Origin: an uncultured Gammaproteobacteria bacterium
GTDB lineage: Bacteria; Patescibacteriota; Microgenomatia; Levybacterales; UBA12049
Direction of reading: 5' to 3'
Assembly (NCBI GenBank): GCA_964474445.1
Contig: CAYYSJ010000004.1
Location: 185-64,184 of the forward strand
DNA length: 64,000 nucleotides
Every line of letters starts with the position of its first letter. Positions within the stretch are counted from its first letter, which is position 1. The notes under the pieces were generated by a model. The model saw nothing but the letters and a program-made list of their open reading frames with translations. It did no database searches and was not told the origin of the DNA. Of the stretch, positions 1-55,441 are shown in pieces. The position numbers and the translations under genes are program-made.

Positions 1-954
1 AGCTGATGTGGCTAAAGGGAAACATCCCAGACTCCCAATTAAGGCCTCTAAATCAAGGCTAAGTTTACAAGGAAGTCAAGATCCATAGACACCCAGGAAG
101 TTGGCTTAGAAGCAGCCACCTTTTAAAGAAAGCGTAACAGCTCACTGGCGGATGGTTCTTGGCGCCGGAAATTACGGAGGATTAAGCCTTGTGCCGAAAT
201 TGGAGAATCTAATTTAGATTGGTAGGGGAGCGTTGTATGCGCAGTGAAGCGGAACCGTAAGGTTTGGTGGAGTACATACAAGTGAGAATGCCGGTATGAG
301 TAGCGTGAGCGAGGTGAGAAACCTCGCCACCGAATGTCCAAGGTTTCCTCCGCCATGTAATTCAGCGGAGGGTTAGTCGGCCCTAAGGGTGTGCCTCGTA
401 TAAAGGGGTGTAGCCCGATGGATCAGGCGTTGAAATTCGCCTACAGAGTATTGTTATTGTAAGGGCGTGACGAAGGTGGAAAAACTAAGCTACCGCAAGG
501 ATAGTGTAAGTGGTAAGGAAGAAGTGATTGGCAAATCCGTCATTTTGTTTATTTGAGCCACGATGCAAAGTCTCGTAAGAGACAATTTAGTACGTTTCAG
601 CTTCCGAGAAAAGCGTCATTATGACAGTCGCAAGGCTCGTCAAAAGCAATATTTTACCGTACCGTATAACCGACACAGGTGGACAGGTCGAGTAGACTAA
701 GGTGATCGAGAGAAAGTGGATCAAGGAACTAGGCAAAAAAGCTGGGCGTAACCTATGGGAGATGCCCTGCCGCAGCAATGCGGCCGCAGCGAAAGATTAT
801 TTAGCGACTGTTTATCTAAAACACAGGTCCCTGCAAAACCGAAAGGTAACGTATAGGGGCTGACGCCTGCCCAGTGCTGGTAAGTCAAATATCTCTGGTG
901 AAGCAGCAATGCCAGCTTAGGATATAAGCTCCAGTAAACGGCAGCAGTAACTAT

Positions 955-1909: not shown

Positions 1910-2380
1910 AGCGAAGTTCCTTGTCGGGCGAGTTCCGACCCGCACGAAAGGCAGAATGACTGAATAACTGTCTTGATCCATTACTCGGCGAAATTGAGAT
2001 GGCCGTGAAGACGCGGCCTAGATATGCATGGACAAAAAGACCCCGGGAGCTTTACTGTAGTTTGGCATTTGGGAGTTCATTTTATATGTTTAGAATAGGA
2101 GGGAGCTTAGGCAATAGTGAAATACCTCTCTTTGGAATGAACAACCATCACCTCTGCCCGCATAAAAATTCGGGAGGGGAACAGTGCTTGATGGGCAGTT
2201 TAACTGGGGCGATTGACTCCTACAACGCAACGGAGTCGTACAAAGGTTGGCTAGCTACGGATGGAAATCGTAGCGATAGCGCAAACGCAAAAGCCAGCTT
2301 GACTGCGAGACATACAAGTCGAGCAGGGACGAAAGTCGGTGTTAGTGATCTTCCGACGCTTAGTGGTAGGCGCGGAACTT

Positions 2381-2413
<33 letters not shown>

Positions 2414-2456
2414 GATCGCTCCCAAGCGTCCACAGCGACGGGGCGGTTTGGCACCT

Positions 2457-2787
2457 TATATGAAAATATCGGGGCGCCTTACTTGTAAAAGTATAGCCTG
2501 GATTATCTATTGAAAATTAACCCATGCAATAGAGATTAGAATTAACTAGCTCAAATCGGTGAACTCCAACTGTGTGTTGGACAACACCGAGGGAAGTCGG
2601 GAAGTACTACTGAGTACCTCCTTGACCCTGTATCGACTGATTCATACTGAGTTTATCAAAGTATGATGAGATAGAAGCTCTTCGTTCATTTTTTGAACGA
2701 AAATCTATAGCTTCTATAATACGGCTAGCTCCTCAGACAACTGAGGATGAAGGGATAGTCAAGACTTTTGGTAACAAAAGAATAATG
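2457..2787 (+). mobile_element. Second ORF-less group-I-type intron in 23S rRNA (E. coli ~L2500 site)
   Basis: Conserved 23S ...GGTTTGGCACCT (to 2456, ends in U) is followed by 331 nt of non-rRNA sequence ending in G (2787), then exon resumes exactly with CGATGTCGGCTCATC (2788). Confidence 0.7.
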
Positions 2788-3026
2788 CGATGTCGGCTCA
2801 TCCTATCCTGGGGCTGGAGAAGGTCCCAAGGGTCTGGCTGTTCGCCAGTTAAAAAGGTACGCGAGCTGGGTTCAGAGCGTCGTAAGACAGCTCGGTCTCT
2901 ATCCTGCATATCCGTCGAAATTTGAGAGGGTTTGGCCCTAGTACGAGAGGACTGGGCTGAGGGAACCCCTGGTGCGCCGGTTGTTTGCGAGATTGCAAGC
3001 ACCGCCGGATAGCTATGTTCCTAACT

Positions 3027-3057
<31 letters not shown>

Positions 3058-3290
3058 AGGCCTCAAGATAAGATTTCATGTCGTAAGACGAAGACCCCTG
3101 GCAGATCACCAGGTTGATAGGCTGGCGGTGGACGCACAGTAATGTGTTGAGCCTACCAGTACTAATGGTCAACGAGTAGACTTAAAGTAAAATTTTCTTC
3201 TCTTCCTTGTCAAAGAGCTGAAATAGGCAATAGCTATAAAATGTTTGTTGTCTAAGTTCTTTACAACTAAATGAGTTTTGTGTTGAAGCT

Positions 3291-4182: not shown

Positions 4183-4755
4183 TCACTCAAGAGAAGAAGA
4201 TTGAAAAGTGATTCTCATATGCCTTTGTCCTCTTCTGTTAAAATATGCTTTCCTTATATCTCCTTTTGCACCTCTTCGTCGCATCCATTCCTCTACATGG
4301 TTTCCTAATGTATGGAGCGAGCCGGAGTCTGAAACAGTGGCTGTTACTGGAGCCATTTCCTCCCCTCTTCTTGTAAAAAGAACATATTCATTAGGAAAAA
4401 GGGAATCTGTTCCGTCATCAATCTCCTCAGACATGGTCAATAGGTGTAGTATAGCAGACGATTAAAACGTTTCAGAGTTAGATGTGTGGAAATGGGAAGA
4501 GGATCTTCTTGGTCGAAATGCAGTAACTCGTGGGTGGTCAGCAGAGGTTCCATAATCTCTCATAAGGCGTATGGTTTCATCAACAATTCCATATAGTTTT
4601 AACGTGGTAGTAAAGACTCCCTCTGCAGCGACTTTGGTAAAACTTTGTACCCCAAACATAAAAATATCACTCTTTGTAAAATTCCTTCTACCAGATTTTC
4701 CTCCTTGTACTGCTGCTTTTGCTTCAAAACGTTTTACTGAATCAACAATAACCAT
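4183..4755 (-). pseudogene. Hypothetical gene split by a single in-frame TAA (two same-frame ORFs 4755->4462 and 4440->4183)
   Basis: Both ORFs end in the same phase (4755 and 4440 are both multiples of 3) and are separated only by TAA at 4462-4464; no family recognised. Confidence 0.35.
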
Positions 4756-4892
4756 TTAAGGTGATTGTAGGAGGGAAATATAAGAATACAAGTAAGAAAA
4801 TCAGGTGGCAGGGGCTACTTCTTCCAATTGCTTCAAGTAGGCATTTCGTGATATACTTTGTGTATCTTATCTGAAAGAGAATATGATAGTCT

Positions 4893-5993
4893 ATGGTAGA
4901 TTCTTCTAAAGGCGCACAATCAATGGCAGAACTTTTGGCGAAGCACGCAGCTGCTTTTCAGCCTCTGGTAAAAGGCCAAACAGTCAAAGGAACTATCTCA
5001 AAAGCAACTTCCTCTGAAATTCTTATGGATTTACATGGCAAGACTGAAGCAGTTGTCATGGAGAAAGAGAGAAGACTATTGAAGCAACTTCTTCATTTTA
5101 TTAAAGAAGGGGATATGGTTGAAGCAACGGTTATCTCCCCTGAGTCAGAAATGGGTTATCCTGTTGTCTCTTTGAGACGCTTCATGGATGAAAAAGTATG
5201 GGCTGAGCTTGAGAAAACGCAAGGAAGTGGCGAAAAAATGGATGTTTTGGTAACCGAGGCAACAAAAGGTGGGTTTTTGGTTGAAGCAGATAACGGAGTT
5301 TCAGGTTTTTTGCCAAATTCCCATGTTTCATTACAAAAGGATGCGCAGAGTTTAGTTGGGCAAAAAATTAAGGCAAGTATTGTTGAGCTTTCTCGAGAAA
5401 ATAGAAAAGTTGTTTTCTCACAAAAAGGAGTACTTTCTGCAGAAGACTTTAAGAAAGTTGTTGAGACGTATAAGCCAGGAACAAAAGTAAAAGGTGTAGT
5501 CAGTGGAATTACCTCATTTGGTCTTTTTATCAGTTTGCCTCTAGAAAAAAGTGGTGACGAACAACAATATGTTGACGGGCTTATCCACATTTCGGAAGTA
5601 TCTTGGGAAAAAGTTGAGGATTTGTCAGAGAGATTTGCAATGGGGGATGAAGTAGAAGCTGTGGTTATTGGAGCTGATAAAGATAGCAAACGGATTGATT
5701 TGTCTCTAAAGCGCTTAACCGTTGATCCATTTGCTGAGGTTGTGAATGCATTTCCAGTTGATAAAAAAGCAAGTGGCGTTGTGATGGATATCAATGACCA
5801 AGGAGTTACTTTAGACCTCGGACAATTGGGAGATATAACAGTTGAAGGAATGATTAAAAAAGACAAAATCCCGCCAACAACAACCTATGAAATTGGTCAA
5901 ACAGTTAAAGCAACGGTTGTTTCTGTTGATGCAAAGAGACGAAAAGTCATGTTGACTCCAGTTTTGCTAGAAAAGCCTCTCATGTATCGGTAA
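4893..5993 (+). CDS. rpsA: 30S ribosomal protein S1 (four S1 domains)
   Basis: Repeated S1-fold signatures (..GxVxGxVxxIxxFGxFVxL.., 'GLIHISEVSWEKVEDLSERFAMGDEVEAVVIGADKDSKRIDLSLKRL'). Confidence 0.8.
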   Translation: MVDSSKGAQSMAELLAKHAAAFQPLVKGQTVKGTISKATSSEILMDLHGKTEAVVMEKERRLLKQLLHFIKEGDMVEATVISPESEMGYPVVSLRRFMDEKVWAELEKTQGSGEKMDVLVTEATKGGFLVEADNGVSGFLPNSHVSLQKDAQSLVGQKIKASIVELSRENRKVVFSQKGVLSAEDFKKVVETYKPGTKVKGVVSGITSFGLFISLPLEKSGDEQQYVDGLIHISEVSWEKVEDLSERFAMGDEVEAVVIGADKDSKRIDLSLKRLTVDPFAEVVNAFPVDKKASGVVMDINDQGVTLDLGQLGDITVEGMIKKDKIPPTTTYEIGQTVKATVVSVDAKRRKVMLTPVLLEKPLMYR

Positions 5994-6181
5994 TTCATAC
6001 CAACTTTACATTGTTTAATAATCCCTCAAACTGAAGATCAAGATAGTGCTTCTAGATCTCGTCATACATCTTCATAAATCACTCTCCCAACATTACGTTA
6101 TATCCTTCGTTCATATGCCATTTGCATTGCTATAAAAGGCTTTTCCAACTACCATCATTTCCAAAGATAGGAGGTGAGAAT

Positions 6182-6352
6182 ATGGTAGCGATAACATTTG
6201 CAGTACAGAGGGGCTCGATGAGAAGACAGCCTCCACTAGGCATCAGAGCACAAGATCCAGATGTAACAATCAAGGATGGAGGATATGATCCAGATGAGAG
6301 AGGCGTTGCATTGAGATTTCGGGCAGAAGGAGATGCTGTGCGCAGGTATTAG
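6182..6352 (+). CDS. Small hypothetical protein (57 aa) with strong SD
   Basis: AGGAGGTGA 5 nt upstream of ATG at 6182; Arg/Asp/Gly-rich, GC-rich relative to genome; no homolog recognised. Confidence 0.3.
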   Translation: MVAITFAVQRGSMRRQPPLGIRAQDPDVTIKDGGYDPDERGVALRFRAEGDAVRRY

Positions 6353-6567
6353 AGAAAACACAGGAAGGTCAGAGCTCGAGTTAGGAGAAAGAATAACACG
6401 TGCAGATACAGAACTACAAGAGAGAATACATAGTGGTTGGGGAGAGTTAGATGAGAGAAGTAGATAAAGGATTTGGGCTAGTTCTCAGCTTCTTATCGTA
6501 GTATACTAGGGACAGAAAAGTATAAGGGAGTATCTTCATACTTATACTCAGTTTTTAGTATTATCAT

Positions 6568-7983
6568 ATGCCAAAACAAGTAACATCCTTTGTCTGTCAA
6601 GAATGTGGATATGACTCTCCGCAGTGGCTTGGAAAATGCCCTGAATGTGGGAATTGGAATACATTCCGTGAGTTTAAAACACAAAATGCAAAAGTGAAAA
6701 GTTTGGGAGGAAATGCTTCAACCTCACTGAGAATGACAAATGGAGAAGTTCCAAAGCCAGAACCTTTACAGAAAGTTTCACTTTCTCCAAAAGATAGGGT
6801 ACATACAGGATTCTCAGAGATAGATAATGTGCTGGGAGGGGGCATTGTAATGGGCTCTGCAATGTTACTTGCAGGAGATCCTGGTATTGGAAAATCTACT
6901 ATGCTTTTGCAACTCTGTATTAACTTAGCGAGCCAAGGCAAAACCGTGTTGTATGTCTCTGGAGAAGAATCCAAAGATCAGGTAGCAATGCGGGCAATGC
7001 GGCTTCTTGCAAACAAAGATTTGCCGGAGAAATTATTACTTCTTTCTCTTACTGATGTAGATCGGATTGTTGAGATTGTTGATAATACCAAGCCTGATTT
7101 TGTCGTTGTTGATTCAATCCAGACAGTTGAGTCAGAAATTGCCGGAGGATTATCAGGGAGTGTCAGTCAAATTCGATATGCCACCAGTTCTTTTATAAGA
7201 GTTGCAAAAGTGCTTAATATTCCGATTATTCTTGTTGGTCACGTCACGAAAGAAGGAATGGTGGCTGGACCTATGATGCTTTCTCATATGGTTGATGTTG
7301 TGCTATTTCTTGAGGGAGAAAAACTCACCAAAACACGAATTCTGCGAAGTCTAAAAAACCGTTTTGGACCAGTAGATGAAGTAGGAATCTTCTTAATGGA
7401 AGGGGAAGGAATGGTTGAGGTAAAAAACCCAGAACAGATATTTTTATCTTCTGGGCAACAAAATGTTCCGGGCTCTGTCCTCGTTGTTATTATGGAGGGG
7501 ACAAGACCGTTCCTTGTTGAAATTCAAGCACTTGTCGTGTATTCCAAATTCCCAATGCCAAAGCGTGTTACAAGTGGTATAGATAATAGACGTTTAGAAC
7601 TGTTGCTAGCAGTTCTGCAAAAACATGCCAAATTACCTTTGGAAAATTATGATGTCTTTGTCAATATTGCTGGAGGGATAAAAGTACAGGATCCTGCTGT
7701 TGATTTGGGAATTTGTCTTGCAGTATATTCTTCTTTAAGGAATAAAGCGTTAGATAAAACAGTCAGTATTGCAGAAGTTGGGCTCTTAGGCGAGCTTCGA
7801 AAAGTGCCAATGCTTGATAAACGCCTTCGAGAAGCAAAGAAGTTAGGTTTTAAAACAATTATCACAGCACAGGATAAAACATCGCTTATGGACGTTTTAA
7901 CAGGTTTAGGATACACTGCAGGGAGTAAACAGTGGAAAATGGAAGATGAGAGGCACTGGAAAATTCCTGAAGAGGTAGAGTAA
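6568..7983 (+). CDS. radA: DNA repair protein RadA/Sms
   Basis: N-terminal C4 zinc finger CQECGYDSPQWLGKCPECGNWNT, Walker A GDPGIGKST, KNRFG motif, C-terminal Lon-protease-like domain. Confidence 0.93.
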   Translation: MPKQVTSFVCQECGYDSPQWLGKCPECGNWNTFREFKTQNAKVKSLGGNASTSLRMTNGEVPKPEPLQKVSLSPKDRVHTGFSEIDNVLGGGIVMGSAMLLAGDPGIGKSTMLLQLCINLASQGKTVLYVSGEESKDQVAMRAMRLLANKDLPEKLLLLSLTDVDRIVEIVDNTKPDFVVVDSIQTVESEIAGGLSGSVSQIRYATSSFIRVAKVLNIPIILVGHVTKEGMVAGPMMLSHMVDVVLFLEGEKLTKTRILRSLKNRFGPVDEVGIFLMEGEGMVEVKNPEQIFLSSGQQNVPGSVLVVIMEGTRPFLVEIQALVVYSKFPMPKRVTSGIDNRRLELLLAVLQKHAKLPLENYDVFVNIAGGIKVQDPAVDLGICLAVYSSLRNKALDKTVSIAEVGLLGELRKVPMLDKRLREAKKLGFKTIITAQDKTSLMDVLTGLGYTAGSKQWKMEDERHWKIPEEVE

Positions 7984-11035: not shown

Positions 11036-13384
11036 TTAGAAAATGTTTTTCTCGCTCCTCAAATGAGAAAGGTGAAGAATCCACAGAGAGAGATTTACGA
11101 GGGAAATTACGAAGAAAATAAGTGCTTTATTCCATCCTAATGTATACCCAAGTGATAGTTCAAAGAGTACAGAAAGCAGGAGCAATGCCTCAAACCATAG
11201 AGCGAAAAACTTAGTTATAAAGATCATAACTCTTTTTTGAAGAGATGGCGCATGTATCGTTTTGGTGATTCCAAGTAAGTATCCTCCTAATTCCACAGCA
11301 TGAATCTCTGACTGGTGAAATCTTGTTGGCTCATATCCTTCTGCCATCACCTGGATATCATACCCTTTTTCAGGGAGTATTTTAAAAAGAAAATCTCCAC
11401 GTATATCAGTATGGGTATGGGCAAAGATTGTTTCACTATCCTGAGCAACAAGATAGACTTCTGCAAGATTGATAGGTGTTCCACTATCTTTTTCAAACAC
11501 ACGTCCTTTAATGATAGTGCCAAGCTTTTTCTGAACTGAAAGAATTCGAGCATAGTGGAGGAAATATGAAAAGAGCCAACGAAGAGGAACATGAATCCTG
11601 CTACTGAAAGAGAGGAGCGTCAAGAAGACGAGAATACTCACGGAAACAACAGCATTGAGGTCAAAAAAACGTACTGAATAGGAAATGTCTTGCACATACG
11701 TTTTGGTAGCGCCGAGGAAGTCAGATAGAATATTGATGTAGTATTTCACTGTAGTAACAATGTTAAAAGGCTCTGCTGTAAGGAAAACAGCAGGATAATT
11801 CTCTCCTGGGTTTGGCCCAAGGGTAAAGAATACATCTTTTTCTTTGTAGCCGACTGCAGTAATATGCACCTGATATTTTCCTTGTGGAAGAGCGAGTACA
11901 TCTTGTCCGTTAAGATCTGTATAGCTTGGGTTCTTGACGGGGAATAGCTGAGGGGGGAGTGGAAGGTATGCCTTTGTTCGAAAATTAAAATAGGAAATAT
12001 ACATTTGTGCTCGTTCGATTGGTTGTTTCGTATCTTTTCTATACACTCGAAGTGGTTGGGAAACAGTAATATCCGCAATTTTATCCTCAACAATATTCCC
12101 TTTTTCATCATAAATTCTGGCAAACTCTTCATAACTTCCTGGAAGAGAGGGGGTCTTTAAACGCCCTTCGTAGACGCCTGGTTGAGTTTCAATAAGGTCA
12201 GTTATTTGAGTATTTGGTTCTTCTGTCTGGTTACTTGTGATGCCCAAAACATACGCATTTCTGACAATAGTTTGAACTTTTGTAACAGTTGTTCCTTTTG
12301 TTACTTGAAAGCGGAAGTTGTAACTGAGATCCTGTGGTACAACTAAGAGAGGTTTAGGGAGTTCTTGGTTTTTAGATGTTGTATCTGTATTTTGTGGTCT
12401 AGGGACAAAAAGCACGATATCGGAGCTAATAAAACTGACGCTGTCTTTATTGACGACAGGTTTTTCTGAAGGAAGTGCAGTTGTGAAGTTAAAAACTTCT
12501 GATGTTTTTGTATTGCCCGAAGCATCAGTTGCCGTCATTTGAATATAGTAAGTAGTATTTGCTGTAAGATTATCAAGAAGAATATCTTGAACACTCGTAA
12601 AAGGTGATTTGTACATTCTTTGGATAAGTTGCGTAGGGGAGGTTCCGTACGAAACTGTTAATTGTGCGGGAACAGATGTTTGAGAAAGCAAGCGGATTGA
12701 ACTATCAATAATAGATCGAAAAGAGAGATTGGTAAAGAAGAGATTGGCAGGTTGTCGAGGAGGAGGAACTGAAGGTGTTGGCACAATTGTTGGCGTAGGG
12801 ATTGGAGTGGGGGTTGCTGCAGGGGGATTTAGTTGGTAAGTTAGAGTGCTGGATTGGTCTGGTGTCGTAACTTGAGATGTGATCAGGCGTACTCTAACAG
12901 GAAAATTGACTGCTGAAGTGCCTGAATAAGAACTGCTCACTGCAAGCTTGAAAGTAACAGACTGATTGGTCGTTTGCGCAGGGAAAGAAGGAATAGTCCA
13001 AGTAATTTTTTGATTTACAAGATCAATAACAGGAGATGCTCCAGATGTTATGCCAGCACTGCCTACTATATAGTTCAGCCCATCTACAGTGGACGTTGCA
13101 GTTCCTCCTTGAATTGTTCCTCTATCCCACTGAGTTTGTATTGTGACAGGCCCTGCGTAGTACAAACGGGAGCCGTAGGTAATGGTATAGGTAACAATAC
13201 TGTCTCCATGGAGGATTCCTGTGGCATCTGATGTAATTCCTACCTGGAAATCTGAATTACGCGGAACAACAATTCCACTAACAGTAACAGATTGGGTATC
13301 TGCAAATAACAGTGGTAGGGATGCTCTCTGTAAAGTCAAAAAAAGAAGAATACCAACACATGCAAGCATGTTAATCTTTTTCAT
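11036..13384 (-). CDS. Large multidomain surface protein (signal peptide, DUF11/FN3-like beta domains, carboxypeptidase-regulatory-like domain, C-terminal multi-TM anchor)
   Basis: N-terminal signal peptide; Pro/Thr linker PTPIPTPTIVPTPSVPPP; 'GTIIKGRVFEKDSGTPINLAEVYLV…DIRGDFLF' (CarbopepD_reg-like); 4 C-terminal hydrophobic helices. Confidence 0.7.
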   Translation of the reverse strand: MKKINMLACVGILLFLTLQRASLPLLFADTQSVTVSGIVVPRNSDFQVGITSDATGILHGDSIVTYTITYGSRLYYAGPVTIQTQWDRGTIQGGTATSTVDGLNYIVGSAGITSGASPVIDLVNQKITWTIPSFPAQTTNQSVTFKLAVSSSYSGTSAVNFPVRVRLITSQVTTPDQSSTLTYQLNPPAATPTPIPTPTIVPTPSVPPPRQPANLFFTNLSFRSIIDSSIRLLSQTSVPAQLTVSYGTSPTQLIQRMYKSPFTSVQDILLDNLTANTTYYIQMTATDASGNTKTSEVFNFTTALPSEKPVVNKDSVSFISSDIVLFVPRPQNTDTTSKNQELPKPLLVVPQDLSYNFRFQVTKGTTVTKVQTIVRNAYVLGITSNQTEEPNTQITDLIETQPGVYEGRLKTPSLPGSYEEFARIYDEKGNIVEDKIADITVSQPLRVYRKDTKQPIERAQMYISYFNFRTKAYLPLPPQLFPVKNPSYTDLNGQDVLALPQGKYQVHITAVGYKEKDVFFTLGPNPGENYPAVFLTAEPFNIVTTVKYYINILSDFLGATKTYVQDISYSVRFFDLNAVVSVSILVFLTLLSFSSRIHVPLRWLFSYFLHYARILSVQKKLGTIIKGRVFEKDSGTPINLAEVYLVAQDSETIFAHTHTDIRGDFLFKILPEKGYDIQVMAEGYEPTRFHQSEIHAVELGGYLLGITKTIHAPSLQKRVMIFITKFFALWFEALLLLSVLFELSLGYTLGWNKALIFFVISLVNLSLWILHLSHLRSEKNIF

Positions 13385-13462
13385 GCTTTAAGCATAGCAT
13401 ATCAAGTATCAGAGCGTCTAAAAAAGTGGAATAAAGATATATTTTTTTGTTATGATGAAAGT

Positions 13463-14032
13463 ATGAAGTGGGTAGCTCTCGGAATATTGTTGGTAGTCAT
13501 TATTGGAGGAGGTATATGGATCTTTTCACCTGGTAAAGATGTTCTATCTTCACAGGATAAAACAAAAGCTTTGCAGACACTGCTTGGAAGGGATGTTCAT
13601 GTAGATGCACAAAATCCTCAGGAAGTAGCATGGACAATGCACACAAATCAGTCTGTTCAATTTTCCTACCCTTCAGATGCAAAAATATATACTCAAGATA
13701 ATAGTGCAGCAATGAAAAATAAAGATATGGTAGATAGCTTTTCTTTTAGTAATCTTACTGATCATGTGACAGCAGTTGTTCAGGTGGTCAAATTTACTGG
13801 AGCACTTATAGAATATCCCGCAGTAAATTTTCGAATTTCTCAGTCAACACTGTATACAGCGACAACCTCTGGTACTCAAACAATTCAATTTATGAAGAAA
13901 GATGACACAGCAGAAAAGTCACTCTTTTTGAAAAAGAATGCTACTATTATTAGCATAGCTGTAACTGGCTATTCTATGCAAAAAGTAGACAATTTATACT
14001 CAAGAATTATTTCTTCGTTGAAGACGTTTTAA
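13463..14032 (+). CDS. Hypothetical membrane-anchored protein
   Basis: N-terminal TM helix (ALGILLVVIIGGGIWIF) then 165-aa soluble domain; no motif recognised. Confidence 0.5.
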   Translation: MKWVALGILLVVIIGGGIWIFSPGKDVLSSQDKTKALQTLLGRDVHVDAQNPQEVAWTMHTNQSVQFSYPSDAKIYTQDNSAAMKNKDMVDSFSFSNLTDHVTAVVQVVKFTGALIEYPAVNFRISQSTLYTATTSGTQTIQFMKKDDTAEKSLFLKKNATIISIAVTGYSMQKVDNLYSRIISSLKTF

Positions 14033-14920
14033 GTAGTATTTTGCTCCTAAACCTCCGAATAGTACCAATGCTACAACAATAGGGATGAGCGGGAGACTCC
14101 CTTGAGAAAAGAACACAAATGTTTTTGTTAATCTCTGGTGAGACTTACCAAAATGAAGGGAAAGGGTTGCTGTATACATTCCTGGCCAAAGAAACGGCTT
14201 AAGCGTTCTTACAGAGACATAATATCCTCTGATGCTTTGTGGCAGTGTAGGAGCAGAGGCTGCATTTACCATTCCTTTTGCAACAATAGTATGAGAAGCA
14301 TCAGTTATTTCCAAAAGTCCATATGGTGTAAGATCGGTATCTCCAGAATTTGTAAATCGAAAATAGAATGTCGTAGGGAATTCGATAAGTTCTCTTTGTG
14401 TTTCAAATGATGGAAGACTTGCTGCTTCGTATTCCTTTCCTGTGTTGGTTCGGACAAAAAGAAGACTTCCTAATGTTCCTTGAATATGTATCTGTTGTAA
14501 TCCTTGTGTATATTGTTCCTTTATATGAGCAAGAATTGTTGCATAATGGCCACCAGGAGTTAACTTATCTTTGTCTATGAAGATAGTAATATTATTTGTC
14601 TCTCCAGGGTCAAGGATAAGTGAATTGTCACTAAAATGTATCCAAGACGAGAGACCGTATTGATAGTTTTGAAAATTTTTATCATCTAAGAAAGAAAGTT
14701 TGTAACCATTTTCAAGCGCAGTAACATCTTGGGCACTAAAGGTAAGCTCTAATGTTTGAGAAGAAGTGTTTTTATAGAAAAGCTTTGTTTGGGGTTGATC
14801 TGTTGCAAGATCTAAATGAATAATGGAAGGTGTAACTGAAATTGTTTGTTGTTGTGCAAAAGCTGGAGAGATCCAAAAGAGTAAACAAAAGATAAATAAG
14901 ATAGATATTGTCCATTTCAT
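14000..14920 (-). CDS. Membrane-anchored Ig-fold surface protein, DUF916/DUF3324 (CscA)-like
   Basis: Signal peptide, beta-rich body beginning '..ISVTPSIIHLDLATDQ…' (pattern typical of DUF916), single C-terminal TM + basic tail (PLIPIVVALVLFGGLGAKYYLKRLQRRNNS). Confidence 0.6.
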   Translation of the reverse strand: MKWTISILFIFCLLFWISPAFAQQQTISVTPSIIHLDLATDQPQTKLFYKNTSSQTLELTFSAQDVTALENGYKLSFLDDKNFQNYQYGLSSWIHFSDNSLILDPGETNNITIFIDKDKLTPGGHYATILAHIKEQYTQGLQQIHIQGTLGSLLFVRTNTGKEYEAASLPSFETQRELIEFPTTFYFRFTNSGDTDLTPYGLLEITDASHTIVAKGMVNAASAPTLPQSIRGYYVSVRTLKPFLWPGMYTATLSLHFGKSHQRLTKTFVFFSQGSLPLIPIVVALVLFGGLGAKYYLKRLQRRNNS

Positions 14921-15022
14921 GGCATTAGTATAAACATTGCCCTAATTTACCTAATTGGTTTACATTCATTGAACATTCTATCCTTGAGGATTCTTTGGCA
15001 ACGAATTAGGTTAATTAGATTT

Positions 15023-16075
15023 CTATCTTTGCTGTTTTTTGACCTCGTGTGTAATATACCAGGAAAGAATAAATTTCAGAAACACACCTCCTAAAATAAC
15101 GACACCAAGGGTACTAAGCACAATAGTATAAGGAAATACAAAGAACGTTGTTGTTGCTTCAAGTGGGACATCTCGTGTGCCATTGTCATAGACAACAAGT
15201 GCAGATGCTGTATATTTACCTATACGAAAGTGAGTAAGCAAGTTCCAGTTAATGACTAAGTGTGTCATAACACGTCCATTTTTGTCGACTTTAGGAGACC
15301 CATCTTGCAGTATTGGCTCTTTTACAAAGAATCCATCTAACCAGCTTGTTTGAAATGTTCTCGTACTACCAGGTAATATAATACCGCTTTCTTTATTGAC
15401 GGAAAGTACTGCAGTATCATTTCCGGAGAGTTTCACAAAAATATTCCCAGTTGGCTTTATGTGCACATTTCCAGTATTTTGCAGTTGTACATTAAAGGTG
15501 ACTGGGAGATATTCGTTAAAGAAAGACGTTGGGATAAAAGAAACAAGTTTGAGTTCTGATTTTGCTTGTGAGGACGATACGTTGAGAAGAATTGGTAATA
15601 CGATTTGACCAAGAAGCTTTGTCCCAGGTGCATTTTGTGTGCCATTTGTTTTAGTAGGTCCAATACGGAGAGCATAGTAATAGCCAAAAGCAGCAGTCTT
15701 AGGAACAGTGATAGTAAAAGGCACATCAACCCATTCTTTTGGTTTGGCCGTAGGCGTTGCAGTCTCAAAGCTTATCCATGAGATAAAAGCATCATTAGGT
15801 TGGGCTGCAACAGGAACTACTTCACCGTTTCGTGCATGAGGGTCAAGTTTGTCAACAACAATAGAGAGAGCAATAGGATCATTAGTATTATTTCGGATTC
15901 TAAATTTTTGTTTCAGTACATCTCCAGGATTTGCCGTAAGATCTAAGAATGTTGGACTTATTGTGAGATTAAGCCCTTGTACTGATTGAGCAAATACATT
16001 TGCTTGCAAAAGAGAAAGAAACAAAAGGAATATGCCAATAAAAAAAATAGCAGTTCGTTTCATATCCTTAATCAT
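15023..16075 (-). CDS. Second membrane-anchored Ig-fold surface protein, DUF916/DUF3324-like (paralog)
   Basis: Signal peptide, 'LTISPTFLDLTANPGDVLKQKFRIRNNTNDPIALSIVVDKL', C-terminal TM anchor + KKQQR tail. ORF could start at 16114; start 16075 chosen from signal-peptide position. Confidence 0.6.
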   Translation of the reverse strand: MIKDMKRTAIFFIGIFLLFLSLLQANVFAQSVQGLNLTISPTFLDLTANPGDVLKQKFRIRNNTNDPIALSIVVDKLDPHARNGEVVPVAAQPNDAFISWISFETATPTAKPKEWVDVPFTITVPKTAAFGYYYALRIGPTKTNGTQNAPGTKLLGQIVLPILLNVSSSQAKSELKLVSFIPTSFFNEYLPVTFNVQLQNTGNVHIKPTGNIFVKLSGNDTAVLSVNKESGIILPGSTRTFQTSWLDGFFVKEPILQDGSPKVDKNGRVMTHLVINWNLLTHFRIGKYTASALVVYDNGTRDVPLEATTTFFVFPYTIVLSTLGVVILGGVFLKFILSWYITHEVKKQQR

Positions 16076-16171
16076 ATACACAATTACCATTTTTTTCAAA
16101 GGGGAAAATAACAAGTGGGAGAGTGGGCTCCCTATATAAGAAAGTGTGGTTAGATGTCATGTCCAATATGT

Positions 16172-17275
16172 CTAGAACTGTCCTGCTGCAGTAATGGTTA
16201 CAGTATCTGTATAATCACTTGCTGGTTTGGTTGTGGCAGAAGCTTCTGCTGAAAAGGTGAGTGTTGCCGTATTCCCGTTTGAAGGAACTGTGTTTGAGAC
16301 AATTTTTTCAAATTGGGTACTATCCAAAGATCCAACAGATGGACTTGATGTGCTGTATTCTGTTGCAACAGTTGGAGAACCACTTCCTGCTGCTACTGCT
16401 AATCCATATCCTGCAGCCCCAGTAAGGTTATGAATATTGCCCGCTCCTGCTGCAAATGCTCCACTGGAAATGGATGTATCACTTGTTGTTGCAGAGGTGA
16501 GCGTACTATTCGCATTAGCATTTTTAACCCATGCCGTCCATCCATTAGCTGCATTAGTACTGACAGTAAGTGTAATACCTGTTGCAGACGTTGGTGCCCC
16601 AGATGTAGTTAGCGTTCCAATTGCAGCTGTATTGCCACTCAAAGACATGGTGAAGCTTGCAGGGACAGTTGCTGTTACGGTAATTTGATCATTGGAAATA
16701 ACTGATGCTGCATAATTTGCCAACTCATTGGCAAGTTGGGTGCCACCACTATTATTTAACTGGATGGTGCCAATTAAATTATTTGCAGCAGCAGTTGGAG
16801 TGGTAAGTGTACTGGTTCCAGTAAAATGAAGACAGTAGGTTGTCCCTGTAGTAAGTGTTTGGCCTGTAGTCACAATAAACGTTACAATACCATTTGAAAC
16901 AGTTGATGTTGTAGCAGTCCCTGGGAATGCAGTTGTCCCAACAGGAATGTTCGTTGCTGTTGTATCCCATGTCCAGTTGGCCGCGGTTTGGTTTACCCCA
17001 AAGTGGGTAGCATCCGCTGTCCCTGGAGTGCCACTGACAGGAAAAGTAATTGCCATTTGCGCAACGTTGGTTGTTTCCGTTATATTCGGATTAAAACAGA
17101 CAGACCCTCCTGTCGCAGTGTTTATTTTTACCCTATCAAGACGGAAATATCCTTTTGCAACTGCACTTGCAGGAGTAGGAAGTAACAATGGTTCAAAAAG
17201 ACCAGCAGCAAGAACGAGTGAAAGAAAAATATGAGGAAGTTGCTTTTTTTGTATCTTGAGAATGGACAGTAATCT
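16172..17275 (-). CDS. Secreted Thr/Ser/Gly/Ala-rich pilin-like surface protein (C-terminal motif ASDYTDTVTITAAGQF)
   Basis: Signal peptide; ~40% T/S/G/A; C-terminal alternating beta-strand motif shared with 17353-18408 and 55442-56215. Confidence 0.6.
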   Translation of the reverse strand, partial: RLLSILKIQKKQLPHIFLSLVLAAGLFEPLLLPTPASAVAKGYFRLDRVKINTATGGSVCFNPNITETTNVAQMAITFPVSGTPGTADATHFGVNQTAANWTWDTTATNIPVGTTAFPGTATTSTVSNGIVTFIVTTGQTLTTGTTYCLHFTGTSTLTTPTAAANNLIGTIQLNNSGGTQLANELANYAASVISNDQITVTATVPASFTMSLSGNTAAIGTLTTSGAPTSATGITLTVSTNAANGWTAWVKNANANSTLTSATTSDTSISSGAFAAGAGNIHNLTGAAGYGLAVAAGSGSPTVATEYSTSSPSVGSLDSTQFEKIVSNTVPSNGNTATLTFSAEASATTKPASDYTDTVTITAAGQF

Positions 17276-17352
17276 CATGTAATAAGCATTACATACAAAT
17301 TGTTTAGTTGTCAATAGGGTTATTCGTATACTACTTATATATTAAGAAGAGG

Positions 17353-18408
17353 TTAGAAAACTGCTGTTGCAATGACAGTGATGATATCTACGTAATCGCT
17401 TGCTATTTTTGCATTAATGCTTGCTTTTGCTTGTAATTGAAAGGTGCCGGTCCCACTTGTAACAGGTAAACCAGTTGAATCAAAAACAGCACGCTTATTT
17501 ACATTATCAAGAATTCCAACGGTATTTCCTGAGCCATTATATGGAGAGAGAATTTCCATTGGTCCACCAGAACTTTGTCCAACTGAGGTTGCTTGCAATC
17601 CATACCCTTCGGAAGTTGTAGACAAATCGCTACTCACTGCTGCTATGGTATATCCTCCTTGTGATGAAAGAAGGCCTCCATTGGTATCATAAGCATAAAT
17701 AGTTGTTCCACCAGTTCCGTTGGTTGAAATAGTGGCGGTTACAGTACTTGTTGACGTTTTGACAGTTCCTGGATCGAGTTGAGGAAAAGTAAGTGCATTA
17801 CTATTTAAAGAAAACGAAAACGTAGGACTGCCTGTTGAAACAATTGTTGCTGGGCCATATGCAGATTGCGTATAGTTGCCTTGTTTAGCAGAAACACTGA
17901 CGGTGTATGTTGTGGAGGGTGTAAGTCCAATCATCGTGAATCCACTCGCCCCCCAAACAGCATTTGTCTGCCAGACAGGAGATGGTCCTAATGTACCATC
18001 TGCTTGCACATATTGTGTTGAGCTACTGACTACTTTAATTGCATACTGAGTGTCACTTGGGTTATTTGCAGTATTAAGCGTGACACTTAATGAGTTATAC
18101 AAAGTGCCGCCATTATTGGAAACGGTTGGTGCTCCTGGAACGTTTGCTGTTAGGAGGTATGTGAGACCTGGTTGATTTGTGTAGCTTGTTGAGTTGAGAC
18201 TTCCTCCATCTAATTGGCCAGTATTGCCAAACAAGGAATAGGTAGTAGATGTCGCACCGCTTATACCACCAGACCCGAAATCATATGCTTTTATTTCATA
18301 GGTTGTACTTTGAGGGCCGGCATCCATTTGTACTGGAGGGGTAAATAAATAGATGAATAAACCAAAAAGTAAATAAACTGTGATAGCTTTAGAAATAATA
18401 TTACTCAT
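17353..18408 (-). CDS. Secreted Thr/Ser/Gly-rich pilin-like surface protein (C-terminal motif ASDYVDIITVIATAVF)
   Basis: Signal peptide MSNIISKAITVYLLFGLFIYLF; T/S/G-rich; conserved C-terminal strand. Confidence 0.6.
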   Translation of the reverse strand: MSNIISKAITVYLLFGLFIYLFTPPVQMDAGPQSTTYEIKAYDFGSGGISGATSTTYSLFGNTGQLDGGSLNSTSYTNQPGLTYLLTANVPGAPTVSNNGGTLYNSLSVTLNTANNPSDTQYAIKVVSSSTQYVQADGTLGPSPVWQTNAVWGASGFTMIGLTPSTTYTVSVSAKQGNYTQSAYGPATIVSTGSPTFSFSLNSNALTFPQLDPGTVKTSTSTVTATISTNGTGGTTIYAYDTNGGLLSSQGGYTIAAVSSDLSTTSEGYGLQATSVGQSSGGPMEILSPYNGSGNTVGILDNVNKRAVFDSTGLPVTSGTGTFQLQAKASINAKIASDYVDIITVIATAVF

Positions 18409-18488: not shown

Positions 18489-18905
18489 TTATATTGGTAA
18501 ATAAAATACTGTTAGTCTAAATAGTGGATGTAAGTACGAAAAGGTACATACCTGACTAATACCTCGTCTATTTGCAATCACTTGCATTAAGACTTCATTA
18601 AATGATATCTCAGGTGTGCTCGTTGAAAGAAGAGTTCTAAATGTCAATTTCATATCCGTTTCATCGGGAGAGAGAATATTAATAGATCCTAAAGAAAGTG
18701 CCTTGATGAAGTCTCTGGCTACTGAGGGGCTAATATAAACAGAAAGTGTATCGTACGTTGTATTAATGACAGAAGCTGAAGTAAAAATTTTGTAACGCTC
18801 TTGTGCAAAATAACGGAAAAAAGCAGCAGCATGCAAATGCTTAGGGTTTGCTCTATCAATAAATGCGACAAAAACATCAGGTGCTATAAAAACCTTTCTT
18901 TGCAT
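18489..18905 (-). CDS. PIN-domain toxin (VapC-like)
   Basis: N-terminal 'VFIAPDVFVAFIDRANPKH' (PIN first acidic residue context), size 138 aa, immediately downstream of small HTH gene. Confidence 0.65.
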   Translation of the reverse strand: MQRKVFIAPDVFVAFIDRANPKHLHAAAFFRYFAQERYKIFTSASVINTTYDTLSVYISPSVARDFIKALSLGSINILSPDETDMKLTFRTLLSTSTPEISFNEVLMQVIANRRGISQVCTFSYLHPLFRLTVFYLPI

Positions 18906-18969
18906 AATGTTTCTAAATCAATATCAAATTTCTCATTATTGTAATTACCAAATTTTGCTTTTGCCTTGT

Positions 18970-19245
18970 CTATGACAAGGATGCGCCTTTCCCATTGAGT
19001 TGTAAAAAAGGATCAGTGTTCGAAAACTCTTGTTCCTTTTCTTGCTTAGCTTTTATGATGATACTTTGCTGGGGAGGAGCAATTGTAAGTGCTGTATGTA
19101 ACTTTTGGACTTCACTTTCTTTGACACGCACATTACCCCCAATTTTTACTGCTTGTAATTTTCCTTCTCGAATATACCGTCGAATAGTAAGCGGATGTAC
19201 TTTAAAAATGAACGCGACTTGTTTGACTGATAAAAAGTTATCCAT
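18970..19245 (-). CDS. HTH (excisionase/MerR-like) DNA-binding protein, putative antitoxin
   Basis: 'LSVKQVAFIFKVHPLTIRRYIREGKLQAVKIGGNVRVKESEV' = classic HTH_17-type helix-turn-helix; 35-bp gap to PIN gene. Confidence 0.65.
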   Translation of the reverse strand: MDNFLSVKQVAFIFKVHPLTIRRYIREGKLQAVKIGGNVRVKESEVQKLHTALTIAPPQQSIIIKAKQEKEQEFSNTDPFLQLNGKGASLS

Positions 19246-19471: not shown

Positions 19472-22400
19472 ATGAGAAAAACTTCCCTGAAAAAAATAAA
19501 GAAAGTTACAGCGAAAGATGCACGACAAAATATAAGAATTTCCTTGGAAAATCTTTTCCAACTTTTCTTCATGATTCCTGTGTGGGTGATTGCTATAGGA
19601 ACGGTAGAAGTAATGGTAGCAGGGGAAGTGCATGCAGCAAATAACAACCAACAAATTAACTTCCAAGGGAAAATTGTTAACAAAACTGGAGGGACAAACA
19701 TCACTGACGGAACATACAGCTTTACGTTTAAAATCTTTGATGCTTCAAGTGGAGGAAACCAGCTATGGTCCGAAACGCAAAGTAGTGTTTCCGTGACAAA
19801 TGGCATTTTTCAAGTTGCTCTTGGCTCTACAAGTTCATTGTCATCGTTAAATTTTACCAATCCAAATCTTTGGCTTGACGTTACGTTTAACGGAGAAACA
19901 TTTGGGTCGAGAATCCAACTTGATGCTGTGCCAACAGCAATCGATGCACTTAATCTGGATGGTGTAGTTGCAACGCAGTCAGCAAGTGGTTTTAATTTAG
20001 CTGGAGGAACAAGTACTGTCTCGACAGTAGCCTTTACAACATCAGGAAATACTCTTACAGTACAACCAGGGAATGCAGGATCCTTAACAGTTCAGTCAAA
20101 TGGTGCGAATGGATTAACACTTGATACAGGGTCTGCATCTTCAGTCAGTGTCGGTACCGCTAACGCAAGTTCCATAACAATTGGAAATACTTCTGCTTCC
20201 AATAATACGGCGATTACTCTTACAACAGGTGGATCAGGCATCATTACCCTCGGTAGTAATACGGGCGTGGGAAATGTTGTTGTCCAGCCAAATGCCGGAG
20301 GACAAGCAGCGCTTCTTATTAAAGACAATGGTGCAGGAGACTTGCTAACAGCATCAGCAGGAGCAACACCAAAATTTGTTGTCTCTAATGCGGGAGTACT
20401 TTCATTAATTGGAGGACAGACAACAGATCTTGATACGATTGGCACAACAAATACCCTCAAAATTGGCACCAATAACCAAAATGGTTTAACGCTTGGAAGA
20501 AATGGGGCAGCAACAACAATTGATGGGTTAGGGCTGACAATAGGACCAACCTCATGGACAGCAACTCCAACGATTTCTGGTCTTGTCACCGCATCAAGTG
20601 GTATTTCACTTGCAGCAGGACAATCCTATACAGGCGCTGGTCTTGTTACGCTTTCTTCAGGTGCGGGTGCAGCATTAACGATTGATTCGGGGACAACAGG
20701 TGCACTGAATCTTGGTACAGGGGCAAATGGAAAAACTATTACTATTGGCAATACCGCGGCAAATACAGCACTCACTTTGACAACAGGGGGATCAGGCATC
20801 ATTACCCTCGGTAGTAATACGGGCGTGGGAAATGTGGTTATCCAGCCAAATGCAGGAGGGCAGGCAGCTTTAGTTGTGAATGACCAAGGAGGGGGAGATA
20901 TCTTTACTGCGTCTTCATCTGGAACAACACGATTGAGAATCTCAAGTACTGGTGGAGTTTTGTTTCAAGGAGATACCCTTACTTCCATTGGCAGTGGTGC
21001 TTCAGGAAATGGAAGTAATGCCGTTGAGAATGCTCTTGGAGACGAAGGAAGTATGGTGCCAAACGCTGGATTTGAATCAGCAATGAGTAACGCAATAGCG
21101 GATGGATGGTTTCCTGCAGCAACGACATCCGCTGGTGTCTTTACCCACGACAACTCAACTGCTGCAAAAGGGCAAGCATCATTAAAAGTAACCATTACAA
21201 ATTCTACTGCTGTTATTTATTCCTCATGTGTCCCTCTTTCAGGAGCAGCAGGAAAATATACCCTCAACTACTACATTAAAGGAGCAGCACCACTAGCAAA
21301 TATAGGAGCATGGATTGATGGGTATACAAGCAAAGCAAATTGTCAATCAGATAACACACCAACATTGGCAGTTGCCCAAGTGGCACCTGCAACAACGTCC
21401 TGGACGAAACGTGGAACCGGTACAACTCCAATAGGAAGTTTTGGAGCTACCGCTACATGGGGACGAGTACATTTCTTAGTGTCTTGTACGAGTGGTTGTA
21501 CAGGATCTGTTACCAATATTGATGGAGTACGACTTACAGAGAGCGATACAGGGCAAGGTCTTGACTATGCTGAAAACTATCCTGCGGATCCTCATAACGT
21601 TCCACAACCAGGGGATATTGTCTCCCTGGAAGTATTGCATGGAGTTGCTGCGGTTATCCCAGCAAGTAAGCCGCAACAAGACAGCAGCGTGATTGGTGTT
21701 GTCTCAACAAATCCAGGACAGGTGCTTGATGATGGTTCTGTTACTGACCCTAAAGTAAGCATTGCTCTTGCAGGTCGTATTCCAACGAAAGTCAGTACAC
21801 AAAATGGCCCAATCCATATTGGAGATTATCTCACCTCTTCTAATATTCCTGGTGTTGCAGTCAAAGCTGTTACCGCGGGAGACGTTGTTGGGGTTGCTAT
21901 GGAAGACTATACAGAATCAGATGCCACAGTCATTGGAAAAGTCGTTATGTTTGTTAAAAATGGATACTATGATGGTGGTAGTGGCTTGGCTGATGCTCCC
22001 GCAGGTATGACCAGTTTTCTGGGCACACAGCAAGTGACACAAGCAAGTAATCAAAATACTATCCTTAGTTCGTCAAGTAAAAGTGTATCCACACAAAGTC
22101 TTTCAGAAAACTTTCTTTCATTATCTTCTAATGGGCTTGCGACAATCTCTGGGACACTTCGTGTGAAAGAGAATGGACTTTTTGAAGGCATTGTGACAGT
22201 TCTAGACACCCTTACAACACATAATTTGATTGTTAATAGTCTATCAGACTTTTTTGATACTGTTGTCTTTCATAAGAGCGTACAATTTGCGACAGCACCA
22301 ACGTTGCCTAAAGATACAGCAGGCTTTGCTGTTATCCATAGAGGAGCAAGAAATGTTGACGTTCACTTCTCTGGTTCTTATTCACAGACACCAATCATTC

Positions 22401-22705
22401 AAGCTTCTCTAACAACACATATCACTGCTGATGCCACAGCAAGCGCACAAGCTTTGTTAAAAAACAATTATGCATTTGTTGTAACGCATGAATCATCCAA
22501 TGGGTTTGGAATTCTTCTAAATAAAGAGGCTCAGGATGATGTCTATCTTTCTTGGGTTGCACTCTCAGTTGATAAACCAAATCTTTTTGAAAGTGCTTCA
22601 ACAGTCTCTGTGTTGGGAACACAAACAACACCAACACCAGTGCCATCAATTTTTACACCAAGTTTGACAAATATACAAAGTGCGAGTGGATCGGCAGGAA
22701 AATAA
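19472..22705 (+). CDS. Large repeat-containing surface protein (1077 aa), paralogous in N- and C-terminal modules to the 3854-aa protein
   Basis: N-terminal TM; domain 'INFQGKIVNKTGG…LWSETQSSVSVTNGIFQVALGS' homologous to post-TM domain of giant protein; tandem ~186-aa repeats (TLTTGGSGIITLGSNTGVGNVV[VI]QPNAGGQAAL x2); C-terminal 'DYAENYPADPHNVPQPGDIVSL…IGVVSTNPG…IALAGRIPTKVSTQNGPIHIGDYLTSSNIPGVAVKA' module. Confidence 0.8.
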   Translation: MRKTSLKKIKKVTAKDARQNIRISLENLFQLFFMIPVWVIAIGTVEVMVAGEVHAANNNQQINFQGKIVNKTGGTNITDGTYSFTFKIFDASSGGNQLWSETQSSVSVTNGIFQVALGSTSSLSSLNFTNPNLWLDVTFNGETFGSRIQLDAVPTAIDALNLDGVVATQSASGFNLAGGTSTVSTVAFTTSGNTLTVQPGNAGSLTVQSNGANGLTLDTGSASSVSVGTANASSITIGNTSASNNTAITLTTGGSGIITLGSNTGVGNVVVQPNAGGQAALLIKDNGAGDLLTASAGATPKFVVSNAGVLSLIGGQTTDLDTIGTTNTLKIGTNNQNGLTLGRNGAATTIDGLGLTIGPTSWTATPTISGLVTASSGISLAAGQSYTGAGLVTLSSGAGAALTIDSGTTGALNLGTGANGKTITIGNTAANTALTLTTGGSGIITLGSNTGVGNVVIQPNAGGQAALVVNDQGGGDIFTASSSGTTRLRISSTGGVLFQGDTLTSIGSGASGNGSNAVENALGDEGSMVPNAGFESAMSNAIADGWFPAATTSAGVFTHDNSTAAKGQASLKVTITNSTAVIYSSCVPLSGAAGKYTLNYYIKGAAPLANIGAWIDGYTSKANCQSDNTPTLAVAQVAPATTSWTKRGTGTTPIGSFGATATWGRVHFLVSCTSGCTGSVTNIDGVRLTESDTGQGLDYAENYPADPHNVPQPGDIVSLEVLHGVAAVIPASKPQQDSSVIGVVSTNPGQVLDDGSVTDPKVSIALAGRIPTKVSTQNGPIHIGDYLTSSNIPGVAVKAVTAGDVVGVAMEDYTESDATVIGKVVMFVKNGYYDGGSGLADAPAGMTSFLGTQQVTQASNQNTILSSSSKSVSTQSLSENFLSLSSNGLATISGTLRVKENGLFEGIVTVLDTLTTHNLIVNSLSDFFDTVVFHKSVQFATAPTLPKDTAGFAVIHRGARNVDVHFSGSYSQTPIIQASLTTHITADATASAQALLKNNYAFVVTHESSNGFGILLNKEAQDDVYLSWVALSVDKPNLFESASTVSVLGTQTTPTPVPSIFTPSLTNIQSASGSAGK
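20215..20300 (+). repeat. Intragenic near-identical repeat, copy 1
   Basis: 47-bp core 20231-20277 (ggatcaggcatcattaccctcggtagtaatacgggcgtgggaaatgt) is identical to the copy at 20789-20835; flanks near-identical. Confidence 0.8.
20773..20860 (+). repeat. Intragenic near-identical repeat, copy 2 (558 bp = 186 codons downstream)
   Basis: See copy 1. Confidence 0.8.
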
Positions 22706-55437: not shown

Positions 55438-55441
55438 AAAT

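Follow-up and report, generated by a model that had tools for sequence, protein, structure and literature searches.

A divergent locus, probably of the Pam pilus type, in a Microgenomatia genome, and the kinship of its chaperones with WxLIP proteins

A 64,000-nt stretch of contig CAYYSJ010000004.1 (assembly GCA_964474445.1; this whole stretch is called the window below) carries, around positions 14000-18408, genes for secreted pilin-like proteins and membrane-tethered chaperones. This locus is, with good probability, the Microgenomatia (Levyibacteriota-like) version of the Pam pilus operon of the candidate phyla radiation (CPR), that is, of a chaperone-assisted, usher-less pilus assembled by donor-strand exchange in a monoderm cell. 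The Pam system is already known (2026 preprint, NCBIfam models), and the locus is a divergent new member of it. What is new here is the kinship of the Pam-type chaperones with WxLIP proteins, which links the Pam pili of CPR to the WxL/Csc clusters of Lactobacillales and Bacillales. Folds, homologies, synteny and conservation peaks were all observed in the present data.

Pam pili were described by Troman et al. (bioRxiv 10.64898/2026.03.03.709456), who identified PamA and PamB by cryo-electron microscopy (cryo-EM) of filaments from the Saccharibacterium Ca. Mycosynbacter amalyticus (PDB 25PZ, 25QA). Both are two-domain pilins with a nine-strand N-terminal domain (NTD), a linker strand and a truncated Ig-like C-terminal domain (CTD), and polymerisation proceeds by donor-strand exchange, in which each subunit inserts its linker into the CTD of the following one (10.64898/2026.03.03.709456). 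Further genes of the operon are those for PamC and PamD, two PapD/FimC-like chaperones each with a transmembrane (TM) helix at the C-terminus, for the single-domain tip pilin PamT and for PamE and PamR; there is no usher. Homologues were reported only in CPR, mainly in Saccharimonadia and Microgenomatia, those of the Microgenomatia being ~21% identical and found by language-model search only (10.64898/2026.03.03.709456).

An earlier reading of this DNA from its letters (the sequence-only reading) had described four co-directional genes transcribed from 18408 to 14000, the first two for secreted proteins rich in Thr, Ser, Gly and Ala. The four open reading frames (ORFs) were recovered on the minus strand at exactly these coordinates, in the order A, B, C, D. 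A is a secreted pilin-like subunit (17353-18408, 351 aa). B is a secreted two-domain pilin-like subunit (ORF 16172-17314, 380 aa), with its likely start at Met13 (17278), which gives 368 aa. C is a membrane-tethered PapD-like/WxLIP-like chaperone of the PamC/D type (ORF 15023-16114, 363 aa); from its likely start at 16063 it is 346 aa long and identical to a database protein (P0001). D is a second membrane-tethered WxLIP-like chaperone and a paralogue of C (14000-14920, 306 aa). The combined share of Thr, Ser, Gly and Ala was 47% in A and 52% in B vs. 28-30% in C and D, and the C-termini that had been quoted for the two subunits, ASDYVDIITVIATAVF and ASDYTDTVTITAAGQF, were exact.

The structure model of B (AlphaFold2, AF2) was well ordered, with a mean predicted local distance difference test (pLDDT) score of 93.3 and 312 of 368 residues at pLDDT ≥ 90. 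Behind its signal peptide, B has a nine-strand beta-sandwich NTD (residues ~42-194) that a linker joins to a C-terminal Ig-like beta-sandwich, the domain plan of the Pam pilins. B-type proteins were 343-373 aa long in 16 of the 17 distinct loci carrying one (400 aa in L021), and B is likely to be the major shaft pilin, being of PamB-like size. Among its 85 detected relatives none had any Pfam domain, and the five with a named source were all CPR. Conservation in the B family peaked at three places, namely the inter-domain linker with the first CTD strand (residues 197-213, DQITVTATVPASFTMSL, 16640-16690, minus strand), the G-W strand of the CTD (residues 238-251, TVSTNAANGWTAWV, 16526-16567, minus strand) and the C-terminal strand (peak at residues 350-365; strand at residues 350-368, TKPASDYTDTVTITAAGQF, with an invariant final Phe, 16175-16231, minus strand). 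By analogy with PamA and PamB, the linker (DQITVTATV) is most likely the donor strand, and the G-W strand would be part of the acceptor groove.

The last strand of the C-terminal sandwich of B is the conserved DYTDTVTITAAGQF. The sequence-only reading had taken the C-terminal strand for the donor strand. We rejected this assignment because in the AF2 model the C-terminal strand belongs to the domain's own fold (pLDDT 97-98) and because the strand donated in the Pam filament structures is the linker. The C-terminal strand most likely lines the groove, as an F-strand-like edge pairing with the chaperone or the donor strand.

A and B had in common only the C-terminal domain of ~170 aa (30% identity, E 1e-10), and all A-type and B-type proteins of the compared loci ended in x-D-Y-x-D-x-x-T-...-F. 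In A, the signal peptide is followed by a PamT-like N-terminus of three S-T-x-Y short-strand repeats, then by an FN3-like module (weak fn3 match), a linker-like strand (ATIVSTGSPTFSFSL, 17806-17850) and, lastly, the Pam-type C-terminal domain, which terminates in ASDYVDIITVIATAVF (CT hidden Markov model, HMM, 3e-40). Its orthologues ranged from 351 to 1054 aa, the variation lying in the N-terminal part, and the N-terminus of an A-type orthologue matched the PamT model (E 6.8e-6). The variable N-terminal part and the PamT-like N-terminus thus make A likely to be an adhesin-bearing or tip-proximal subunit.

Similarity to Pam subunits was scored with the NCBIfam models of the June 2026 release, NF058581 CPR_Pam_pilin_C (cut-off 55 bits) and NF058579 CPR_pilus_PamT (cut-off 240). 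Two members of the B family matched NF058581, P0205 with 45.8 bits (E 6.6e-12) and P0200 with 24.5 bits (E 2.3e-5), and in both the whole model was aligned at the C-terminal domain. The E-values are significant, yet the scores lie below the cut-off, so these are distant members of the Pam families and not trusted ones. When A, B, C and D of the window were scanned directly against Pfam and NCBIfam, nothing significant emerged.

The system extends beyond the interval of the four genes, with conserved partners at 11036-14032 and 18489-19245 and a second mini-module at 54451-56215. The mini-module consists of S1, a small single-domain, PamT-like subunit of the Pam type (55442-56215, minus strand, 257 aa), and, directly downstream, S2, a third WxLIP-like membrane-tethered chaperone (54451-55437, minus strand, 328 aa). 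S1 has a signal peptide, an N-terminus of the S-x-N-Y type, a related CTD with four conserved Cys and no linker strand; its C-terminus is DTYTNTITYIAIPTF (...TITYIAIPTF). The S1 family (701 cluster representatives at 50% identity) is homologous to the CTD of A and B (hhalign E 5.6e-7). A look-up of the clusters of S1 relatives yielded no taxon names. S1 itself scored 23 bits against NF058581 (E 6.9e-5) and matched NF058579 with E 1.1e-3; its relatives reached 34-36 bits against NF058581, which spanned their entire CTD. Searched against PDB sequences, the family profiles of B and S1 gave no match in a set that excluded the PamA/B entries 25PZ and 25QA. Downstream of the S1-like gene, 50 of the 53 metagenome loci that extend far enough had a WxLIP-like gene as the immediate neighbour, and the other three had one nearby; subunit and chaperone therefore form an obligate pair. 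S1 is single-domain, has no linker and comes with its own chaperone; we propose that it is a PamT-like tip or initiator.

C and D were distant paralogues (BLASTP E 9e-6; profile E 1.3e-24). As the sequence-only reading had noted, both have a signal peptide followed by a characteristic opening (L-T-I-S-P-T-F-L-D-L or I-S-V-T-P-S-I-I-H-L-D-L), a beta-rich body, one C-terminal hydrophobic helix and a basic tail; the body consists of two Ig-like domains. C has a disordered loop at residues 137-153 (15605-15655) and its C-terminal TM helix at 15029-15130, and D is without an insertion of ~32 aa that is present in domain 2 of C. This is the plan of the PapD/FimC-like chaperones that share an operon with their subunits and carry a TM helix at the C-terminus, and also the architecture of WxLIP proteins, DUF916 (PF06030) plus DUF3324 (PF11797) plus a C-terminal TM helix. 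The DUF916/DUF3324-like character that had been suggested for C and D was borne out by profile comparison. C had 458 relatives, and 28 of the 43 that were aligned matched PF06030 (DUF916, WxLIP_PGBD; best E 2e-8). Against a WxLIP reference of nine genuine DUF916/DUF3324 proteins from Enterococcus, Pediococcus, Lactiplantibacillus, Melissococcus, Bacillus and Listeria plasmids, the C family aligned over 226 columns with a probability of 98.8% (hhalign E 5.4e-17). With the signal peptide and TM helix removed the E-value was 7.3e-10, and negative controls gave about 0.4-0.6. The D family matched the same reference with E 2.3e-10. Pam-type chaperones are bona fide members of the DUF916/DUF3324 WxLIP family. 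The Pam preprint makes no mention of WxL or DUF916 (10.64898/2026.03.03.709456), and we found no link of DUF916 or WxLIP with CPR in the papers searched.

Synteny was compared in 18 GTDB genome loci and two others, the module being scored where the contig was long enough. The order HTH_17, P138, A, B, C (one or two copies), P189 (opposite strand), D and usually E782 recurred in every such locus, so the arrangement does not reflect chance. The syntenic module was found in metagenome-assembled genomes (MAGs) of Levyibacteriota, Saccharibacteria and Parcubacteria. Relatives with a named source, which were a minority, all came from Patescibacteria, Levyibacteriota, Saccharimonadales, Pacebacteria or Parcubacteria. 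A surface assembly of this kind had been considered unusual for such a genome; its recurrence across CPR MAGs makes it typical of CPR, specific to them and widespread. Seven third-party annotation (TPA) MAG records (L006, L008, L009, L010, L013, L017 and L018) are titled 'uncultured Gammaproteobacteria' or 'Pseudomonadales' and carry the module at 41-81% identity; since the module is of the CPR type, their taxonomies are probably mislabelled.

If PamA/B of M. amalyticus are taken as the model, the filament would form as follows, with the donor strand and the subunit order assigned accordingly. A and B would be exported by Sec. The C-terminal Ig-like domain of each would expose a groove bordered by the G-W strand and the C-terminal strand (...DYTDTVTITAAGQF), which the membrane-tethered chaperones C and D may cap with a donated strand. 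On polymerisation, the chaperone strand would be swapped for the inter-domain linker (DQITVTATV) of the next subunit. B would build the shaft. A, whose N-terminus is PamT-like and whose module is variable, and the linker-less S1 would sit at or near the tip, A being the probable adhesive or tip-proximal component.

Several points weigh against a Pam identity. A and B of the window had no match to any NCBIfam Pam model, and the scores of their relatives were all under the curated cut-offs (23-46 bits vs. 55; 18-44 vs. 240), so the link to Pam is transitive, if consistent. Likeness to PamA and PamB of M. amalyticus was judged from their published description, and A, B, C and D were likened to Pam proteins by type. 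No PamR-like terminator was recognised at the locus. Strand exchange at this locus is something we infer.

Given the kinship of C and D, the nearest alternative lies in the WxL/Csc clusters of Lactobacillales and Bacillales, which encode WxLIP (DUF916 + DUF3324 + TM) with a small and a large WxL protein (PMC10599100, PMC9772566, PMC1534035; PDB 9i1y, 9i25). AlphaFold predicts the insertion of a strand of WxLIP into WxL (PMC10599100), and a complex of WxLIP with long WxL is in the PDB (9i25). The locus could accordingly encode a non-polymerising complex in which A and B are kept on the cell surface by C and D through strand complementation, a mode proposed for WxLIP-WxL in Firmicutes, and make up an adhesive platform and not a filament. 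We consider this unlikely. The subunits were compared with 14 WxL proteins from Firmicutes plasmid clusters and 120 database WxL proteins, and hhalign gave E 0.15-0.54 for A and B (0.04-0.54 over the tests with A, B and S1), with hmmsearch scores no better than those of decoys or of reversed or shuffled sequences. A WxL/Csc cluster has at least two WxL-domain proteins, with two W-x-L motifs on adjacent strands; PF13731 (WxL) had no match in A, B, S1 or 147 relatives, and the solved WxL chain 9i25_A was absent from the top 50-60 structural matches of B. The Pam-pilin C-domain model, in contrast, matched members of the family, the relatives in M. amalyticus form filaments, and the linker was among the most conserved segments, as expected of a donor strand. 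The first WxL motif is partly kept in the subunits (G-W-x-A), and B has short motifs colinear with those of an Enterococcus large WxL protein (V-P, G-W exactly 42 residues later and C-terminal Y-x-[DT]-T-[VIL]-T). We treat this colinearity of short motifs as a lead, not as evidence.

Fold-level resemblance extends further, to CsuA/B for the subunit and CsuC for the chaperone, and the C-terminal Y-x-D-T-x-T motif is reminiscent of SCPU; both would suit a Gram-negative-style chaperone-usher fimbrial operon (SCPU/Csu-type) gained by transfer. Such an origin is very improbable. There was no usher-like ORF in the module and no Pfam usher match among the ORFs scanned, and instead of a soluble periplasmic chaperone all chaperones carried a C-terminal TM anchor. 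SCPU PF05229 was matched by one of 87 relatives of S1 (E 0.047) and by none of the B family. The relatives with a named source were all CPR (a minority was named, and some TPA records are titled Gammaproteobacteria or Pseudomonadales), and the G+C content of the locus was close to that of the surrounding window. Family-wide Pfam scans thus led us to reject an SCPU identity at the sequence level. The high Thr/Ser/Gly/Ala content of A and B would also be compatible with disordered, mucin-like secreted glycoproteins that have no functional relation to the neighbouring Ig-fold membrane proteins. We give this hardly any credence, in view of the well-ordered all-beta fold predicted for B, the conserved motifs of the family, which are not of low complexity, and the near-obligatory co-occurrence with chaperone genes. 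The sequence-only reading had inferred a Csc-like or fimbria-like surface assembly. Of its points, the DUF916/DUF3324 kinship of C and D held; WxL kinship of A and B (no PF13731 profile similarity and no top structural match), SCPU kinship (no PF05229 profile similarity in A, B or their families), the C-terminal donor strand and the supposed rarity did not.

With the locus read as a Pam pilus, the chaperone kinship allows a wider proposal: that Pam chaperones and Firmicutes WxLIP are one family, that Pam pili and WxL complexes descend from a common monoderm chaperone-subunit system and that the WxL domain is a diverged, groove-bearing pilin CTD. We advance it as a whole only tentatively. The chaperone half is well supported; the subunit half, homology of WxL with the Pam CTD, is not. 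If the proposal were true, donor-strand complementation or exchange might also be how Firmicutes WxL clusters assemble, including those by conjugation genes on pXO1-like plasmids.

WxL clusters with DUF916/DUF3324 were seen on plasmid pb of B. thuringiensis (L028) and pXO1 of B. anthracis (L029), both typed as conjugative, and on pLGUG1 of Listeria grayi (L030), typed as mobilizable. The cluster adjoins genes for a CpaF/VirB11-family ATPase (pXO1), a type IA topoisomerase (pb) and a T2SS/T4P/T4SS-family ATPase (pLGUG1). Its position beside such genes on conjugative or mobilizable plasmids suggests a role in cell-cell contact during mating. On pLGUG1, two hypothetical proteins (4316-4945 and 6057-7604, plus strand) flank the DUF916 gene; both lack a second Trp, and their C-termini read ...PYETTVTVAVVQGP or ...PYETTVTATIVQGP. 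The small protein still passes the Pfam WxL model (29.6 bits) and the 515-aa one was unrecognised by it; the pair look like intermediate WxL variants.

The remaining genes of the module lie on both sides of A-D. The first is a conserved HTH_17/excisionase-type (BldC-like) DNA-binding protein (18970-19245, minus strand), likely a regulator. It is followed by P138, a conserved protein of 138-141 aa (18489-18905, minus strand) located immediately upstream of A in all complete loci and without a match in the family scans. HTH (91-100 aa) and P138-type (138-141 aa) proteins were the first two genes in eight loci (L001, L006, L007, L009, L011, L012, L015 and L017), and one locus (L014) had P138 only. 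The pair could be a regulator or toxin-antitoxin-like. P189 (13463-14032, plus strand) is a conserved accessory protein with an N-terminal TM segment, always on the opposite strand and adjoining C or D. E782 (11036-13384, minus strand) is a conserved neighbour with a signal peptide, beta-sandwich modules, CarboxypepD_reg domains and several TM segments, possibly a base or anchor component of the pilus. The E782-type proteins of two loci, L017 (9476-12139, minus strand) and L018 (3001-5667, minus strand), had an N-terminal domain homologous to the NTD of B (phmmer E 1e-11 to 8e-16), which hints that E782 joins or anchors the pilus.

The strongest promoter-like site of the scanned region was at 19393-19364, just upstream of the HTH gene. 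A terminator-like hairpin lay directly after B (16117-16132, minus strand) and a promoter-like site before C (16071-16099, minus strand), an arrangement that might allow higher expression of the subunits than of the chaperones. The numbers of promoter and terminator sites in the region were not above the shuffled expectation.

Divergently transcribed from the module is a T/S/G-rich protein of 1077 aa (19472-22705, plus strand), with no Pfam or PDB sequence match; a segment of ~117 aa resembled virion structural or baseplate-wedge/tail-pin proteins of Pseudomonas jumbo phages (37% identity, E 8e-6). The 1077-aa protein may be the 'tail fibre-like protein' that the Pam preprint reported as a conserved neighbour. 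In L001 a 2192-aa protein stands in its place. Elsewhere in the window, an ORF of 3854 aa (40763-52327, minus strand) presumably encodes a giant surface protein. Positions 1-3184 (plus strand) matched 23S rRNA, with model positions 1001-2925 spread over 3184 bases. The ~1260 extra bases imply large insertions or introns, as is typical of CPR, and ORFs of 177 and 127 aa (1014-1547 and 1999-2382) lie inside the rRNA. The window is thus from a CPR/Patescibacteria genome, and the closest relatives of its proteins that have a named source belong to MAGs of Levyibacteriota and other Patescibacteria.

As a Microgenomatia/Levyibacteriota example of Pam, the locus adds to what is known of an appendage, distinct from type IV pili, by which CPR episymbionts are believed to reach their hosts. 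It reveals a conserved extended module (HTH, P138, P189, E782) and a very common pair of PamT-like subunit and chaperone, and it gives an annotation to genes that are currently 'hypothetical' and missed by the NCBIfam Pam models. The homology of Pam chaperones with WxLIP ties a CPR pilus to a Gram-positive surface system that is widespread yet little understood, and suggests that monoderms have long relied on PapD-like chaperones anchored in the membrane.

Compared with chaperone-usher pili (archaic Csu/SCPU, alternative CFA/I), the locus lacks an outer membrane, an usher and any SCPU match, its chaperones are membrane-anchored, its pilins have an extra NTD and the Pam donor is an internal linker rather than an N-terminal extension. 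Relative to WxL/Csc clusters, the partner proteins are without the second W-x-L and the Asp/Arg pair, end in Phe rather than Pro and have no profile or top-ranked structural WxL match; there is no LPXTG protein here, and WxL complexes are described as peptidoglycan-bound platforms, not filaments. The likeness to WxL/Csc lies in C, D and S2, which are sequence and structure homologues of WxLIP with the same plan of signal peptide, two Ig-like domains, TM helix and basic tail and the same opening motif ([FIL]-[ST]-V-[TS]-P ... [FL]-D-L). It lies also in the partner genes directly upstream, of which one is constant in size and one has a variable N-terminal extension, and in the chaperone-like strand insertion into the partner predicted for WxLIP-WxL. 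Pam filaments were seen by cryo-EM in M. amalyticus; in the present lineage they would be expected by analogy. The locus is very divergent from Pam, it differs in gene order and complement, HTH, P138, P189 and E782 are conserved here, and A joins a PamT-like N-terminus to a two-domain body. Common to both are Sec-exported two-domain pilin-like proteins (nine-strand NTD, linker, Ig-like CTD), PapD-like chaperones with a C-terminal TM helix in the operon, a single-domain PamT-like subunit and a restriction to CPR that includes Microgenomatia, with conservation that peaks at the linker and the CTD groove.

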